Shown piece by piece: positions 26,000 through 37,043 of a DNA stretch of 64,000 nucleotides (position 1 is its first letter; every line of letters begins with the position of its first letter). The DNA lies in IMG/VR virus record IMGVR_UViG_2675903278_000002, one strand, 5' to 3'. Made by a program: the position numbers and the translations under genes. Source of the stretch: a virus. Taxonomy: Duplodnaviria > Heunggongvirae > Uroviricota > Caudoviricetes. The notes under the pieces are model-generated. The model did no database searches. It was not told where the DNA came from and saw nothing but the letters and a program-made list of their open reading frames with translations.

Positions 26000-26109
26000 C
26001 GGTTGCAACTTATTGATAATGGCGGTCACAATTTGATTCTTTTCTATAAGAACCCGTTGATCGCCACTACTCCCCTCCCATACCAGCAATCACATCATTA
26101 AATATCAAT

Positions 26110-26960
26110 AGGTTATGGTTGTTTATACAAATAAGAAAACAACTAAATAACAGATCAACGAAACGTCAACGCTTTCACCCGATTTGGTCTAAAAAATTGA
26201 CGTTTTCACACATCACTTCTTATACCCGTAACTCTACGCAGCAGACATCGCCACAGCGTCCAATTTTCACCACAGACGACCCAACACACTACCAACAAAA
26301 ACACACGCTCAAAATCGCTCCCGTTGCGTTACACAACCATATAAACAACTTATTTTCAGGCATAACAAAACAACTAAATAACACACATGCCATTTCCAAA
26401 AACAACCAACCTCTTTATGGCAGGCTACCGAAAAGACCCACCTCTTCTCCCCAGGCTACCGGACAACCAACCTAACTTTCACAGGCAATCCGAAAACATT
26501 CATACGCGCGATACCCACGACACGCCATTACCCAAACAGCGAAGAAACACCAGAATCACTGAACCCCCAACGAAGCCTGTAACCGCAAGGCTTCTCTCAA
26601 TCCCAAAAGACACGAAACAGAACAATCACGGGAAACGCCATTACCCAACACACGAATAACTACAAAAGCCCTTCACGCACTCCAGACAAACAACTCAAAC
26701 ACAATAACGAAAGGAATCGCCCACCTGCCATTACTCCATACACGGAGAAGAACAATCACCAAAACGACGAGAACACCCCATAGAAGAACCACCGCAAAAC
26801 GAACGAAACCACATACACCGACAGAGAGAACAACACACCCAATTCACCAACAGAATTAGTCGCCGTATAGAACGTTCTGGAAGGAGTGAGTGTTAACGTC
26901 CATAGAGAGGTTGAGACAGATAAAACACGAATAAAACACAACATGTATAGCGAAGAAGCC
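26110..26960 (+). ncRNA. candidate non-coding transcript, A+C-rich and G-poor on the + strand
   Basis: ~0.85 kb strongly depleted in G and T; starts after a class-A-like half motif (AAGAAAACAACTAAATAACA, repeated ~240 nt in); ends at hairpin+T terminator ~26983-27007; ORFs here are low-complexity. Confidence 0.35.
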
Positions 26961-26982
26961 AGGTATGTATAAGTGGGGAGAG

Positions 26983-27007
26983 AAGGAGGGGTGTCGCCTC
27001 CTTTTTC
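26983..27007 (+). terminator. rho-independent terminator
   Basis: GGAGG-GGTGTCG-CCTCC followed by TTTTT. Confidence 0.65.
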
Positions 27008-30569: not shown

Positions 30570-31052
30570 ATGAATTTTATCGCTACTGTAAACGCACCCG
30601 CACATGGCAATATCGCTGTAACGTTCTCTGACATTGAAAAACGAGTACTTGGTGCATGGCGCGACAATGAGACGGTAGAACTGTCAGCACAAGAAAAATG
30701 CATTATTGCACGCGACATCATTGGCAATCGTCGTTACTCGCGGGTATTTGAGAAAGCGTATGTGGTAAATTCTGGGTTCGGAACGTTCGTCTTTCCGGTG
30801 CGCTCCGGGCGATTCTGCCAGTCCAAGCTGATTGAGTTCGCTACGCAGATTTCTGTCTGGATTAAAACTCAATCGTCGTTCAAATTTTCCGACGATGAAG
30901 CAGTATCGCAGGGGATGCGGATCGCCAACAATGCGATTAAATGCAAAAACATTACGTATACCGCTGGCGTTGATACATGGAAACTGTTTTGCGCTAACTT
31001 TATGCTGAATGTATACGCAAGCAACCGCATCCACATCCTTGATGGCGTGTAA
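30570..31052 (+). CDS. hypothetical protein
   Basis: 160 aa; RBS AAGGAATTAATC; hairpin terminator follows. Confidence 0.65.
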   Translation: MNFIATVNAPAHGNIAVTFSDIEKRVLGAWRDNETVELSAQEKCIIARDIIGNRRYSRVFEKAYVVNSGFGTFVFPVRSGRFCQSKLIEFATQISVWIKTQSSFKFSDDEAVSQGMRIANNAIKCKNITYTAGVDTWKLFCANFMLNVYASNRIHILDGV

Positions 31053-31055
31053 CTG

Positions 31056-31083
31056 AGAAGAGGGCCAGAAACGGCCCTTTCTC
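31056..31083 (+). terminator. rho-independent terminator
   Basis: AGGGCC-AGAAAC-GGCCCT hairpin followed by TTCTC. Confidence 0.7.
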
Positions 31084-31084
31084 T

Positions 31085-31260
31085 ATAGCCACCAGCTGCC
31101 GCAGGGAAATTTTCAGAAACGGCGAGGAACGTATTCATAAGCCGACGGGAAACGGCCAGGATTTTTTCGGGAAACGGCTGCATTCGCCTTTATGTAGAAA
31201 AAAACATCGGGAAGCTGGTGGAATCCAACCAGCGGTTGTCGGACAGGCGAGCGGGGAAAA
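31085..31260. repeat. second array of GGGAAACGG-like iterated repeats
   Basis: GCAGGGAAATT, CAGAAACGGCG, GACGGGAAACGGCC, TCGGGAAACGGCTG, ATCGGGAAGCTGG, GCGGGGAAAATT; begins with CTCTATAGCC box also seen after the terminator at ~28303. Confidence 0.6.
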
Positions 31261-31289
31261 TTATGATGACTTTCGTCGCCTGAGACATC

Positions 31290-31360
31290 CAGATTTCTTT
31301 CGTAGCATAATCACATACGTGATTAAGTGGTGTGATTATGTGAAAAATCACGCGCACATA
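31290..31360. promoter_or_regulatory. cluster of TCACA/TGTGA half-site palindromes
   Basis: AATCACATACGTGATT, GTGTGATTATGTGA, AATCACGCGCACATAAT within ~70 nt of AT-rich non-coding DNA. Confidence 0.35.
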
Positions 31361-31635
31361 ATACGCGAGCGGATACGGAACAAAACAAAATGCCGATCCG
31401 CGCCGACAAATAAACGCGGATCACATAGCAAGAATAAAAGCCAATGATTAGCCATACGTTATAGCGCAATATAACGCATTTTAAGCGCGTTAATGTGCTA
31501 AGTAATGGGTATGTACTGGTAAGGATATAAAAGCGCGTCTATGGCGTTATTTTGGCGCTTATTTTTATGTTGTTGGAGTGAGTTAAAGACAATAAAAAAC
31601 GCGCCATCATTGGCGCGCTATGGTGGGAGTATTGG

Positions 31636-31662
31636 AAACGAAAAAAGCGCCCATAGTGGGCG
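31636..31662 (-). terminator. rho-independent terminator for minus-strand cassette
   Basis: AAGCGCCCATAGTGGGCGCT hairpin with A-run on + strand; same 20-nt hairpin in inverse orientation at ~32139. Confidence 0.65.
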
Positions 31663-31669
31663 CTCGATT

Positions 31670-31900
31670 TTATTTGTGTAAACTGATTTTAAATCCCATT
31701 TCTACAAACGCTTTTAACATTAAAAATATATCAGCGTCGTTGATTCCAATATCCGAACGCTCAATATCATTTAATAAATCAATTTTACGCGTTGTTTCAT
31801 CGATAAACTCGACTGAGCGCCCAGCGTAACCAGCGATCCCAGCGATGCGATTAACAAAATATTCATTGCGCACGTTAACGCCAGCGATAAGAACAAACAT
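31670..31900 (-). CDS. hypothetical small protein
   Basis: 76 aa; minus-strand AAGGAG RBS 7 nt before ATG; AT-richer than flanking DNA by eye. Confidence 0.55.
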   Translation of the reverse strand: MFVLIAGVNVRNEYFVNRIAGIAGYAGRSVEFIDETTRKIDLLNDIERSDIGINDADIFLMLKAFVEMGFKISLHK

Positions 31901-31921
31901 GATAAAGCTCCTTAAAAAAAA

Positions 31922-32125
31922 TTAAATAGAATTTTGAAGTTTTCCGATTAATGCGCTTAAACGTAAGTATTCACGTTTGCGCTTGCAATCTCGCTTGCTG
32001 TTGAGCAAATCAGAAAACGTAAAATTTAATTGGTCGCGTTGCGCGATCAAATCATCGATTAATTCCAGTTTATAAGCGCGATACTTTGCGCGATATTCCG
32101 CGCGGATCTTGTCATAGCTGACCAT
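31922..32125 (-). CDS. hypothetical small basic protein
   Basis: ~67 aa from internal Met (MVSYDKIRAEY...) of track ORF 31922..32170, with AAGGAG RBS. Confidence 0.5.
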   Translation of the reverse strand: MVSYDKIRAEYRAKYRAYKLELIDDLIAQRDQLNFTFSDLLNSKRDCKRKREYLRLSALIGKLQNSI

Positions 32126-32138
32126 TTTTAAAGCTCCT

Positions 32139-32162
32139 TTAAAGCGCCCACTATGGGCGCTT
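32139..32162 (-). terminator. intercistronic hairpin (attenuator-like)
   Basis: AAGCGCCCACTATGGGCGCTT between the 216-aa gene stop and the next RBS. Confidence 0.5.
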
Positions 32163-32173
32163 GATTCCATTAA

Positions 32174-32824
32174 TTACGCTTTGAAAGCATCAGCTAAATA
32201 ATTGTAGAAATCATTTTTAATGAAGCGATATTGCTGAGTACCAGCTTTCGCGCTCCCAGCTCCTTTGACTTTTTCAACAAGTCCAAGACGTTCGCAAAGA
32301 TTGATCAACTGGTTGGCTTGAGTATAGCCAGCGTCCAATTTAATTTCGCACGCTTTTTTCGCTTCATTCATTAAATCGAAAACAGCGCCATTGGTGAACG
32401 TGTCGATCTCGTCGTTAATCATATCGATTAATGCGAATACACGAGATCCGGACATATCAGCGACGGAATAAACACACTTTCCAGCTTTAATGGATTTAAC
32501 CAGATAAACCAGTTTTTCCAGAGAATAACTATTAGTCATTGCATCACGGAAAAATACTTCTGGCGCTTGTTTGCTTGCTTTGATCGCATAGTAGAAAACA
32601 GAGCACAATTTTTCGTCTTCTACAGCGTTTACAACGTTGTTGATGAAGTAAGCAAGTTTAGTGGTTGCAGCTTGCATATTTGCTTTGTCTGCTTTGGTGT
32701 GCGTGCCATTTTTATAATGTTCGTTATATGTTTGAGTTGCCAGATCTGCTTTTTCGCGCAGTTCATCGGATACAATGGAAGCAGCTTCAATGATGGATTT
32801 TTTAGAAATGATAATGTTAGCCAT
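32174..32824 (-). CDS. hypothetical protein (216 aa)
   Basis: Long minus-strand ORF, AT-richer by eye, AT-rich promoter-like region upstream (32825-33070); no recognisable domain. Confidence 0.7.
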   Translation of the reverse strand: MANIIISKKSIIEAASIVSDELREKADLATQTYNEHYKNGTHTKADKANMQAATTKLAYFINNVVNAVEDEKLCSVFYYAIKASKQAPEVFFRDAMTNSYSLEKLVYLVKSIKAGKCVYSVADMSGSRVFALIDMINDEIDTFTNGAVFDLMNEAKKACEIKLDAGYTQANQLINLCERLGLVEKVKGAGSAKAGTQQYRFIKNDFYNYLADAFKA

Positions 32825-33069
32825 GATAATTTTTCCTTATGTAAATTTAAAATTTATTGTCGTTAGCGTCTTCGCTTTCGACGAGTTCAATTATCGATAT
32901 GCGAAAAAAGATTGCAAGTGTTTTTTTTAAATTTTTTGCAGGGATGAAAGTCCTAGAAATAAAAGCGAGATCGTCGAAGGTGTTCCCTAAATAAATAATT
33001 GATTGCGGCTTTAGACCTTATATATATTTAGGTTATTTGATTTGTAGATATAAAGAAGTGATGTGAAAA

Positions 33070-33098
33070 ATAATAACCGGACTTAGCCGGTTATTAAC
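33070..33098. terminator. bidirectional hairpin terminator
   Basis: AATAACCGG-ACTTAG-CCGGTTATT between the two minus-strand cassettes. Confidence 0.6.
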
Positions 33099-33107
33099 CT
33101 TATAGAT

Positions 33108-33416
33108 TTATTGAACAGACTCTACAGCCTTACGATTGGTGTCAAATAGCGCATCAACGAACTGTGCCGATGACTCGCTAGATTCGCAATCCAACATTGC
33201 CCGTTCTTCATTTGCCACTTTCTTACACAGTTCCACATTCTCACCTATCGCTTTTCCTGCTTTTACGGCTGCCGAAAATTGATACATGCAAACTGATACA
33301 TTCTGAGACGTTGAGCACACGTCATTCATCAGCGACTGAATGACAGGCTTATAGTCCATTGCATTTGCCGCAACTGAGCAAAGTAAAAATAATGGTGGTA
33401 ACAATATCGATTTCAT
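33108..33416 (-). CDS. putative secreted/periplasmic small protein
   Basis: 102 aa; N-terminal signal peptide MKSILLPPLFLLCSVAANA; several Cys. Confidence 0.6.
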   Translation of the reverse strand: MKSILLPPLFLLCSVAANAMDYKPVIQSLMNDVCSTSQNVSVCMYQFSAAVKAGKAIGENVELCKKVANEERAMLDCESSESSAQFVDALFDTNRKAVESVQ

Positions 33417-33419
33417 AAC

Positions 33420-33944
33420 TCAAAAAGGCAAAATTCGTTCAACCCAATCGAACAAAACAACTATTTTTCTACCGTTCTCGACACGTAGTGTAACCTGACA
33501 AGCATCTGCGCCTGCTGACACCCCCTCAATTTCACGGCCATCCGCCATGTACACCCTTATAGATTTGTTTGCTTTGTAGGCTTGGTTGCAAATTGCAAAA
33601 AAATCGCGGCGTGATGGCCGATTATCGACATAATCAGGGTGAACTGTTAGTCGACCTTTGAAATCGTGAGCGATACTGTCAACCACACCTGATTCAATTG
33701 TACTAATGCGTTCAAGTGGGAGCCTTATACGATTTTCTTTGTCAAAAGGGGCTGGGCAAAGGTCAACTTTGTTACGAGATGGCATGAGGCCATAAACGTA
33801 CATGCAAAACGCCTGGCCATCTTCGAGAGTGACCCTTACAGGAATTTGTTCTCTGCGCCAGAACATCAGTAGTTTTTCAACGTTAGTGTAATCTCGCGGC
33901 CAGAGTTCAGCTTGGATACCGTAGGTAATATCTTTGGTTGTCAT
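33420..33944 (-). CDS. hypothetical protein
   Basis: ~174 aa from internal Met (MTTKDITYG...) of track ORF 33420..34022; ATG 1 nt after the upstream lipoprotein gene stop. Confidence 0.55.
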   Translation of the reverse strand: MTTKDITYGIQAELWPRDYTNVEKLLMFWRREQIPVRVTLEDGQAFCMYVYGLMPSRNKVDLCPAPFDKENRIRLPLERISTIESGVVDSIAHDFKGRLTVHPDYVDNRPSRRDFFAICNQAYKANKSIRVYMADGREIEGVSAGADACQVTLRVENGRKIVVLFDWVERILPF

Positions 33945-33948
33945 ATCA

Positions 33949-34371
33949 TCACAGAGTTGTTGGCAGAATGTCGATGTCACCAGAATTGCTGGTAAACACC
34001 CTGAACGCTTTTGTGTCTCCATTCTTCAGAGTCGTTTCTCGCTCTTGACGAGCGGGGTTTAGAGCACATAAACCTGCACCTTCAAGAGATGCACCCACAA
34101 TTAATTCTCCGGCATTTAAATGGAAAGTCGCTTTTTCGCCTGTAGCCAGTTTTGCGACAGTTTCGCCGTTGATGAAAATGGAAGCATCACATCCAGCTCC
34201 TACAAAACCTGTGTCTCTCATTACCACCAACGTAGCTGGCGCTGCGCTTTGATACTTGAACACTTTGGCCTGCGGTGCTGGTTTGGCGTCATGGATTGAT
34301 ATTGGGTGTGATTGGCACGCGGCAAGCATCAACACTGGTAACGTTAGTAGAGGGAGAAGCGAGTATTTCAT
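33949..34371 (-). CDS. putative lipoprotein (candidate superinfection-exclusion protein)
   Basis: ~140 aa from internal Met (MKYSLLPLLTLPVLMLAACQ...); lipobox LAAC; function inferred by analogy. Confidence 0.6.
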   Translation of the reverse strand: MKYSLLPLLTLPVLMLAACQSHPISIHDAKPAPQAKVFKYQSAAPATLVVMRDTGFVGAGCDASIFINGETVAKLATGEKATFHLNAGELIVGASLEGAGLCALNPARQERETTLKNGDTKAFRVFTSNSGDIDILPTTL

Positions 34372-36322: not shown

Positions 36323-36347
36323 ATAATAAGTAAGTGATTACTTAGTG
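36323..36347. repeat. class-B palindrome in divergent intergenic region
   Basis: TAATAAGTAAGTGATTACTTAGTGG between helicase (-) and ParB-like (+) starts; overlaps a TATAAT hexamer. Confidence 0.55.
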
Positions 36348-37043
36348 GATTGTAGCAATAAAATGGATGTAAAAATCACGATTTTGCAGGTTGATGTTGC
36401 CAACCTTCGCCCGAATACCTGGAACACCAATTCGGTTGGTGCGCAGAATTTTGAAAAACTGAAAGGTTCTATCGAAAAATTGGGCTTTTTTAAGCCAATT
36501 TTGGCTCGTGAACTTGAAGATGGATTTTTTGAAATCCTCGGCGGTGAACATCGCTGGCGTGCTGCTATTGAGCAAGGAATTTCAACGGTTCCGGTGCTTT
36601 CTGTGGGCAAAATTAGCGATGTCGTAGCTAAACAGATGTCACTGGTGGACAACGAGCGATACGGTGAAGACGACCAAATCGCATTGCAACGCTTCATTGA
36701 AGAAATTCAGTCAGAACTTGACTATCAACTGTCTGAAATCGCCCCGTATGACGACGAAATCTCGATGGTTTTAGCAAAAGAGGCGGCAATCGACCTTGAA
36801 GCACTGGAGGCGTTGTCTCGTGGTAGTGATGAGCCTGTCGATACCGACAAACGAGAGAAAACCGAACGTGTGGGTGCGGAACATCAGACCATGCGCTTCA
36901 AAGTAACTTTCGATGCGTCAGATCGTGTTGCAGAAACCATAAAAAACATCATCAAAGAGCAGGCTATTAACACCGGTAATGAAATGGAGAACGCTGGTGA
37001 GGCTCTGGTGTGGCTGGTCGACTACTACAAGGAGCGTATGTAA
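36345..37043 (+). CDS. ParB-like nuclease domain protein
   Basis: 232 aa; ParB/Srx-like N-terminal motif FEILGGEHRWRAA; track start is GTG 36345, ATG at 36363 also possible. Confidence 0.8.
   Translation: MDCSNKMDVKITILQVDVANLRPNTWNTNSVGAQNFEKLKGSIEKLGFFKPILARELEDGFFEILGGEHRWRAAIEQGISTVPVLSVGKISDVVAKQMSLVDNERYGEDDQIALQRFIEEIQSELDYQLSEIAPYDDEISMVLAKEAAIDLEALEALSRGSDEPVDTDKREKTERVGAEHQTMRFKVTFDASDRVAETIKNIIKEQAINTGNEMENAGEALVWLVDYYKERM

Follow-up and report, generated by a model that had tools for sequence, protein, structure and literature searches.

A candidate lytic-phase core operon with a predicted winged-helix protein in an SSU5-type phage-plasmid

The DNA analysed here (hereafter the window) is a 64,000-nucleotide (nt) stretch of a tailed-phage genome (Caudoviricetes, IMG/VR record IMGVR_UViG_2675903278_000002), and our subject is a cassette of three minus-strand genes at 31636-33098 that encode proteins of 216, 67 and 76 amino acids (aa). 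Our favoured reading, to which we give about even chances, is that the cassette is an autonomously controlled, lytic-phase core operon in which the 216-aa product is an abundant, probably oligomeric, site-specific DNA-binding protein and the two small genes are optional cargo. Over 31000-34000, the window shares 96.7% identity with Escherichia phage CMS-2020a, and relatives of the window include PhiR41_1, Cyrano (the phage-plasmid of LF82) and Salmonella phage SSU5; on the strength of this kinship, the window is assigned to an SSU5-type phage-plasmid.

Distribution, composition and expression of the 216-aa gene

The open reading frames (ORFs) of 216, 67 and 76 aa proposed by the initial annotation were all confirmed. 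The core gene (32174-32824, minus strand, PHROG 1513) encodes the 216-aa protein, with a predicted helical N-domain and C-terminal winged helix-turn-helix. Accessory gene 1 (31922-32125, minus strand, PHROG 6145) encodes a basic helical protein of 67 aa and is present in 47 of about 90 loci; we called it from the ATG behind an AAGGAG site, the mechanical ORF being 82 aa. Accessory gene 2 (31670-31900, minus strand, PHROG 1585) encodes a 76-aa protein unrelated to the 67-aa one. As initially noted, none of the products matches a known domain, and searches of Pfam, NCBIfam and PADLOC gave no family at threshold for any of the three, though all fall into PHROG families; the only sub-significant match in PADLOC-DB 2.0 was that of the 67-aa protein to PDC-M47B (E = 0.027, 12 bits). 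The annotations of both SSU5 and PHROG 6145 give the 67-aa protein the label 'MIT family metal ion transporter' (CorA). Because it has only 67 residues, looks soluble and lacks such a Pfam match, this label is evidently wrong, a propagated mis-annotation that is corrected here.

Homologues of the 216-aa protein form a small, closed family: a word-indexed search retrieved 102 clusters, and an exhaustive profile search of 1.84 billion representatives returned only 23 clusters, all of them family members or fragments. By tblastn against PLSDB, 815 plasmid records carried the 216-aa gene and 953 the capsid gene, with 216-aa gene to major capsid gene counts of 346/340 in Klebsiella, 217/200 in Escherichia, 91/91 in Enterobacter, 62/62 in Yersinia and 49/49 in Salmonella. 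The position of the gene is constant in SSU5, Yersinia pestis pMT1, Salmonella Typhi pHCM2 and the Klebsiella and Enterobacter plasmids, and is kept in contigs with a protein identity of only 53%, 42% and 31-33%. All syntenic loci have the helicase and ParB_N genes on one side and a 550-790-nt non-coding gap with convergent genes on the other; in the distant locus L010, no gene intervenes between the helicase and the 216-like gene. Because the gene holds the same position in all examined elements and its count tracks that of the capsid gene genus by genus, genome comparison identifies it as a core gene of SSU5/pHCM2/pMT1-type phage-plasmids. At least 8 close loci and 3 distant ones (L009, L010 and L095) carry it without any small partner. 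The presence/absence comparison suggested in the initial annotation has a divided outcome, with 216-aa homologues at the same position in relatives and small genes that vary from 0 to 2 units.

The initial annotation had also described the cassette as AT-richer than its surroundings, which proved correct: its GC content is 0.374 against 0.470 for the whole window. Among 1463-nt segments sampled every 50 nt across the window, this value lies at percentile 0.08% (about -3.3 standard deviations) and is essentially the lowest, the minimum being 0.372 at 31651. By part, GC is 0.392 in the 216-aa gene, 0.397 in the 67-aa gene, 0.368 in the 76-aa gene and 0.304 in the upstream intergenic region (32825-33107). 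The 216-aa gene is AT-richer than its own genome at 7 of the 8 loci checked (41% GC versus 55% in L009 and 39% versus 51% in L008); exceptions to this AT-richness are L010 (0.327 versus 0.331) and the short contig L094. The codons of the 216-aa gene match those of the head, scaffold and tail genes: the fraction of Escherichia coli optimal codons (Fop) is 0.648, ranking third of 70 genes, compared with 0.756 for the major head, 0.641 for the scaffold and 0.628 for the major tail gene. The low GC at third codon positions arises from T- and A-ending optimal codons, and the gene is apparently host-adapted and built for high expression. Because AT-richness is kept in most lineages and the codon usage is capsid-like, we read the low GC as an intrinsic, maintained property of the gene, with no mark of recent transfer. 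Of the horizontal acquisition proposed initially, what survives concerns the two small genes, which behave as exchangeable accessory cargo; it does not extend to the core, syntenic 216-aa gene.

Expression of the cassette in the lysogen could be read from one published RNA-seq data set of one strain, LF82, on a scale of log2(FPKM+5) (FPKM, fragments per kilobase per million) with a zero-read floor of 5.0. Cyrano of LF82 carries a 98%-identical homologue of the 216-aa gene, CYRAN_113, which stood at 5.9, and the 76-aa-type gene CYRAN_112 stood at the floor of 5.0 (PMC9928086, S1 Table). The upstream genes on the same strand gave 46 for the helicase, then 114, 9 and 18, the last for the FljA-like gene (PMC9928086, S1 Table), and the KacT, RelE and HicAB toxin-antitoxin genes of Cyrano were 6-60x above background in LF82 (PMC9928086). 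A rise of about 8-fold was recorded in macrophages at 6 h (PMC9928086). Because the upstream genes are expressed while the cassette homologues lie at the floor, the upstream terminator works and the promoter of the cassette is shut off while the element is a plasmid-prophage. Literature searches by protein accessions and locus tags returned nothing, a broad one for an SSU5 lytic transcriptome brought up herpesvirus papers only, and that for pHCM2 RNA-seq gave no usable result; a preprint on a heteroresistance phage-plasmid was set aside since it concerns an unrelated family.

Predicted winged helix and upstream control elements

The structure of the 216-aa protein was modelled with AlphaFold2 from a 16-sequence alignment, with a predicted local distance difference test (pLDDT) score of 77.7. 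In the model, residues 8-68 form a long helical hairpin (pLDDT > 90), followed by three shorter helices and a weak linker, which together make a helical N-terminal domain of about 120 residues. Residues 129-213 fold as a1-b1-a2-a3-b2-b3-a, and the segment 129-201 has the a1-b1-a2-a3-b2-b3 order, recognition helix and wing of a winged helix-turn-helix; the predicted fold thus consists of a helical bundle and a C-terminal winged helix, and contains neither a nuclease nor a pore or NTPase domain. Foldseek searches against PDB and BFVD gave no match at E<0.03, all winged-helix matches being non-significant (Orc1/Cdc6, MukE/F and cullin-type winged helices among them), so that the structure search proposed initially yielded a predicted winged helix and no significant structural match. 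PDB sequence searches with two family profiles found no match, and neither did the MarR, ArsR and PadR Pfam hidden Markov models (HMMs) in any of 14 family members. The 76-aa protein was modelled with a pLDDT of only 58.8.

Conservation in the family is concentrated in the predicted recognition helix, its best conserved segment. D164, T168, Q169 and G181, four of only eight residues invariant across the family (21-85% identity), lie together with the near-invariant Q172 in or beside this helix, in the pattern D-x-G-[YF]-TQ-x-x-Q...ERLG. The helix-plus-wing segment has an isoelectric point (pI) of 9.4 and the whole protein is neutral (pI 7.6). From the model, the 216-aa protein is predicted to bind DNA through its C-terminal winged helix.

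Upstream of the gene, the AT-rich promoter region noted in the initial annotation was located by a consensus scan, which placed a sigma70-like promoter at 32890-32940 (all elements of this section lie on the minus strand). It comprises a UP-like A-tract, a -35 element TTGCAA (32917-32912), a 16-nt spacer and a -10 element GATAAT (32895-32890), from which the start site was inferred, and its CTTG and GATAAT blocks are kept in relatives. A sigma54 -24/-12 promoter was considered and rejected, TTGCA being present but no GG element at -24. The promoter core CATATCGATAATT, examined as an operator that might be shared with other promoters, is not enriched in the window. The transcribed leader contains a stem-loop, GTCGAAAGCGAAGACGCTAACGAC (32859-32882, segment minimum free energy (MFE) -9.8 kcal/mol), whose 8 pairs show 86.8% of cells paired and a compensatory change at every pair, a score that 0 of 500 shuffles reached. 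An intrinsic terminator at 33071-33096 (segment MFE -12.6 kcal/mol, z = -4.1) closes the upstream unit of helicase, FljA-like and 102-aa genes. With its own promoter, this insulating terminator (33096-33071) and tandem terminators at its end, the cassette has the compact, self-contained architecture initially ascribed to it. The ribosome-binding site (RBS) of the 216-aa gene is TAAGGA; the near-identical RBS contexts that the initial annotation had assigned to all three genes are restricted to the two small ones, where TTTAAGGAGCTTTA stands at 31903-31917 and 32129-32143 with 93% identity.

In a 12-genome alignment, the non-coding conservation islands are Box B (TTTATTnAGGnAACACCTTC), Box C (TTTCTARGACTTT), the A-tract, the -35 and -10 elements, the stem-loop of the 5' untranslated region (5'-UTR) and the RBS. 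Box B (TTTAGGGAACACCTT, 32977-32991) is conserved down to about 32% protein identity, Box C (ATTTCTAGGACTTT) lies at 32947-32960, and neither has a second copy in the window. Box A, with the motif A[AT][AC]TATAAGG (AWMTATAAGG), occurs three times in the 64 kb against 0.24 expected, all copies on the strand of the gene and at most 550 nt upstream of it: ATATATAAGG at 33016-33025, about 200 nt 5' of the 216-aa start codon; ATCTATAAGG at 33098-33107, immediately beyond the stop codon of the 102-aa gene, on the 5' side of the terminator that insulates the cassette; and ATCTATAAGG again at 33555-33564, an exact motif match in the 3' part of the FljA-like gene.

Box A accompanies the 216-aa gene across the family. 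All 11 loci first surveyed, relatives of 31-33% identity included, have 2-3 same-strand copies upstream of the 216-like gene and no Box A elsewhere in their 7-12 kb; the strict pattern has 1-4 upstream copies in nearly all of 80 viral-contig loci, and the TATAAGG core is also found upstream of the gene in L095-L097. Most loci have one Box A about 200-245 nt upstream of the start codon, the exceptions being L010 and L011 (nearest at about -375 to -397) and L090 (-348). The spacing of the boxes is irregular, ranging from 46 to 211 nt between genomes, and shows no helical phasing. The copy inside the FljA-like gene imposes ATA-AGG, rare codons in E. coli, and is kept in most of about 80 FljA-like genes, a few of which read GTA-AGG or ATA-AGA; in a clade with ATC/ATT-CGC at this site the boxes are intergenic only (three in L086, two in L087). 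Because the rare ATA-AGG is retained while flanking synonymous sites vary, the comparison indicates that selection acts on the Box A nucleotide motif itself.

In SSU5, the locus lies at the meeting point of two convergent blocks: a long one running rightward, with genes for replication, nucleotide metabolism and small accessory products, and a leftward one in the order helicase, small genes, FljA-like repressor, 216-aa gene and small gene. Its neighbours include a UvsW-like helicase gene and genes of recombination and nucleotide metabolism. The FljA-like gene of the window (33420-34022, minus strand, upstream of the cassette) is a 'repressor of phase-1 flagellin' gene (Pfam Flag1_repress, E = 2.5e-84) whose product also matches Hfq weakly, and it is expressed in the LF82 lysogen. 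Since mRNA leaders are the targets of FljA-type proteins, the FljA-like protein may be what regulates the cassette through its conserved 5'-UTR hairpin. Divergent from the helicase, at 36345-37043 (plus strand) and neighbouring positions, are two ParB_N (ParB-like nuclease) genes in tandem and, after them, genes for ABC/AAA-type ATPases; these adjoin the helicase in all relatives, the most distant included, and are silent in the LF82 lysogen.

The hairpin-bounded small-gene slot

The small genes lie between two copies of one hairpin. The pattern GCGCCCA-NNN-TGGGCGC occurs exactly twice in the 64 kb (31647-31663 and 32144-32160) against 0 expected, both copies having identical 9-bp stems, loops that are reverse complements (TAG versus CTA) and an MFE of about -15 kcal/mol in 45-47-nt segments. 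Copy 1 (AGCGCCCA-TAG-TGGGCGCT, 32143-32161, minus strand) marks the slot boundary and is followed by only UUU and then the RBS; internal hairpins of this kind should therefore attenuate transcription and not stop it, and copy 1 would terminate only partially if at all, serving between the cistrons as an attenuator or stabiliser. Copy 2 (AGCGCCCA-CTA-TGGGCGCT plus U6, 31639-31665, minus strand) was found by a terminator scan (31665-31645) as the operon terminator, and the scan placed a second, tandem intrinsic terminator at 31598-31619 (minus strand), both combining a GC-rich stem with a U-tract. Copy 2 is invariant in 8 relatives, whichever small gene comes before it.

A survey of about 90 loci gave the layout of the slot as the 216-aa stop, a hairpin, n repeats of the unit TTT(T/A)AAGGAGCTTAATC plus ORF plus hairpin, and then TTTTTTCGTTTC. 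The units are promoterless and number 0, 1 or 2 per genome, and their insertion point is precisely the junction of the hairpin with its T-tract; in the window, the 67-aa and 76-aa genes share one unit. This window type was found in 20 loci, the 67-aa gene alone in 27, a 76-aa-type gene alone in 21, a different 64-aa gene in 6-7, two 76-type units with three hairpins in 2 and no unit in 8, and the distant L009 and L010 lack both these small genes and the hairpin. The 67-aa family is confined to SSU5-like elements. Homologues of the 76-aa protein, about 35% identical, occur in Pseudomonas phage PAK_P4 (L092, 64714-64947) and about 30 related phages, PAK_P2 among them, all strictly virulent and Pakpunavirus-like, where they sit in runs of small hypothetical genes. 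By this distribution, the two small genes are optional, exchangeable accessory cargo.

The initial annotation had described the same hairpin in both orientations flanking the genes. The stem is indeed present twice with the loop reverse-complemented, but the two copies are not the ends of a mobile element. Of 87 first hairpins, 62 have a CTA loop and 11 a TAG loop; of 78 last hairpins, 66 have CTA and 8 have TAG. Because the TAG loops are scattered over clades and the genes between the hairpins are never inverted among relatives, comparison of the loci identifies the 'two orientations' as a single terminator whose loop has flipped repeatedly; a reading of the hairpins as terminal inverted repeats was rejected, as the copies are direct repeats in most relatives. 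Hairpin-loop 'flip-flop' inversions are familiar from chloroplast non-coding DNA and from quasipalindrome template switching. The slot hairpin resembles them in that its loop is reverse-complemented between identical stems, recurring independently in several clades and at both positions, and differs from the chloroplast cases in that it was seen by sequence comparison in a phage-plasmid terminator.

Two known kinds of modular exchange invite comparison. In the lambdoid 'linker/boundary sequence' model, short conserved sequences mark the boundaries of modular exchange, and morons are accessory inserts. Like morons, the units are small AT-rich ORFs with their own terminator hairpin between conserved genes; unlike morons, they lack a promoter, are silent in the lysogen and are each followed by the same 17-19-nt hairpin, which results in an array. 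Like integron cassettes, they are promoterless ORFs with a hairpin repeat, variable in number and order downstream of a fixed promoter. It is conceivable, but in our judgement very unlikely, that the reiterated hairpin is a dedicated capture site where promoterless units enter between stem and T-tract, are exchanged and are transcribed from the core-gene promoter, forming an integrase-independent, integron-like array in which the loop flips are processing scars. Unlike attC, the slot hairpin has a perfect 8-9-bp stem and a 3-nt loop, with no RYYYAAC/GTTRRRY boxes and no extrahelical bases, and no integrase (intI) was found among the flanking genes (helicase, FljA-like, ParB-like and small hypotheticals), the rest of the genome not having been screened. 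The exchange is more simply explained by homologous recombination or slippage than by an integron-type process.

Downstream of the slot, the conserved non-coding zone between the convergent transcription blocks (31053-31597) contains four GAAACGGC repeats (31067-31178, spaced 48, 33 and 22 nt), a perfect inverted repeat CATAATCACA-N15-TGTGATTATG (about 31307-31342) and several GC-rich hairpins with T-runs on both strands. The distant L008, L009, L010 and L095 retain a gap of 550-790 nt without coding sequence; in L008, L009 and L010 this gap spans 600-750 nt and includes GGGAAA(A)CG repeats similar to GAAACGGC. No Rfam family reached its gathering score in the whole window, and a permissive scan of 30900-33200 gave sub-threshold matches only. 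Elsewhere in the window, about 790 nt at 26060-26850 (plus strand) hold no convincing ORF and are extremely G-poor and CA-rich on the plus strand; at 26001-27000, GC skew is -0.31 and AT skew +0.35, with no tandem repeats. The stretch is 96-97% conserved in E. coli relatives and about 70% in SSU5, and may give rise to a non-coding transcript of rut-like or G-less type or serve as some other cis element.

Competing readings and biological meaning

Under the favoured reading of a lytic-phase operon, the A-tract promoter and conserved 5' stem-loop would drive the codon-optimised 216-aa gene, so that its product would be made in large amounts once the lytic programme begins. The protein would oligomerise via its N-terminal helical hairpin, and its C-terminal winged helix would bind the direct repeats AAAT[AC]TATAAGG[GT] upstream of its own promoter, which may serve autoregulation or activation, or act as origin-like sites. 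The short U-run of the internal hairpin would let a fraction of transcripts pass, so that more core protein than cargo protein would be made. Recombination or slippage between hairpin copies would add and remove the cargo genes, which would probably act on the host in takeover or anti-defence. Such a role is possible, and their variability, their silence in the lysogen and the occurrence of homologues in virulent Pseudomonas phages are compatible with it.

Several points weigh against this reading. Lytic expression is inferred from lysogen silence and the macrophage rise, and no induction time course was found in the literature. Box A is linked to the 216-aa protein by co-occurrence alone, and since its copies all lie on the transcribed strand, they could have an RNA role (e.g. 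antitermination at the adjacent terminator) or be bound by another factor. The protein lies outside the sequence families of the winged-helix proteins ArsR/SmtB, MarR, PadR, TubR and RTP (Pfam, NCBIfam and PDB HMM searches being negative), and differs from them in having its winged helix C-terminal, after the 120-residue helical domain. MarR/ArsR-type regulators rarely use direct, irregularly spaced repeats, whereas the candidate sites here are direct repeats in one orientation with no palindromic operator, and the predicted expression of the 216-aa gene is, unlike theirs, very high. Very high codon adaptation is unusual in a transcription factor or replication initiator.

Within the DNA-binding reading, a regulator is slightly favoured over an origin-binding initiator of lytic replication. 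We regard it as unlikely, if well worth keeping in view, that the 216-aa protein is such an initiator, with Box A as iterons, the locus as origin to which the phage replisome would be recruited, and a RepA replicon elsewhere in the genome serving the prophage state. The Box A repeats are direct, non-palindromic and in the same orientation, and flank an AT-rich stretch and the gene, a layout shared with P1 RepA/incC-incA, P1 RepL/oriL and lambda O/ori; as in these replicons, the gene is repressed in the prophage state and lies in a replication-gene neighbourhood, with the UvsW-like helicase and the recombination and nucleotide-metabolism genes nearby. A second repeat set, the four GAAACGGC copies of the downstream 550-790-nt non-coding zone, recalls the incC-repA-incA order of P1, and the silence of the gene while the element replicates as a plasmid fits an initiator reserved for lytic growth. 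So does the most distant homologue (P0122, metagenome contig L093), which lies behind 1.5 kb of non-coding DNA (1-1565) with a 16-nt tandem array of 5.4 copies (1041-1126) and then 29%-GC DNA, an origin-like layout; the top Foldseek PDB matches, non-significant as they are, include the Orc1/Cdc6 winged helix. Measured against an iteron origin, Box A has 2-3 copies next to a region of 30% GC, but its spacing of 46-211 nt is unphased. Counting against an initiator, the protein has one winged-helix domain against two in iteron Rep proteins and no HMM match to Rep_3, RepL or lambda O, nor homology to the P1 and lambda proteins; the repeats upstream and downstream differ in sequence, and capsid-level codon adaptation is atypical for initiators. 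The window has 3 DnaA boxes, which is below the chance expectation, and the two matches near the locus are weak and not conserved.

Equally improbable in our estimate is an abundant 216-aa protein that lacks sequence-specific DNA recognition, being either architectural and nucleoid-coating or a scaffold whose winged helix makes protein contacts, the boxes then being sites for the prophage repressor, H-NS or RNA-level antitermination. The capsid-like codon adaptation implies stoichiometric amounts, and the overall neutral protein (pI 7.6), the MukE/F and cullin-type winged helices among the structure matches, and the position of Box A on the RNA-sense strand, with one copy abutting the upstream terminator, would all suit it; AT-richness in most lineages would also suit a putative silencing by H-NS. 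It is opposed by the placement of the top-conserved D164, T168, Q169, Q172 and G181, residues of typical base-contacting types, at the predicted recognition helix, and by the presence of Box A with the gene in L010 too, a locus in which no gene separates the helicase from the 216-like gene.

The horizontally acquired three-gene toxin-antitoxin, abortive-infection or defence module of the initial annotation, with the 216-aa protein as effector and the small proteins as partners, would account for a compact, AT-rich cassette with its own promoter and terminators, no annotated function and small genes that vary between close relatives, but is barely credible, because the 216-aa gene is core, syntenic and host-adapted in its codons, occurs alone in 8 close loci as well as L009, L010 and L095, has a product whose predicted fold (helical bundle and winged helix) lacks any nuclease, pore or NTPase domain, and lies at floor expression in LF82, where such a module must be on and the known toxin-antitoxin pairs of the element are expressed, and because no PADLOC or Pfam toxin or defence match was found and the small genes are mutually unrelated and interchangeable, with no fixed partnership.

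To our knowledge, the 216-aa family has no described function or curated domain, and we know of no description of a locus that combines a core gene for a winged-helix protein with a conserved multi-box control region and a cargo slot delimited by hairpins. The components are each of known kinds: winged-helix binders, intrinsic terminators, modular exchange at boundaries and hairpin loop flips. For the reading of such genomes, the locus carries the lesson that low GC here does not equal foreign origin. The hairpin-bounded slot explains the local mosaicism and is a place to seek small host-takeover or anti-defence genes. Clinical Enterobacteriaceae commonly carry SSU5-type phage-plasmids, whose lytic switch and lytic replication are essentially uncharacterised; with its silent core gene, predicted DNA-binding domain and co-conserved cis elements, the locus is a testable candidate for either.

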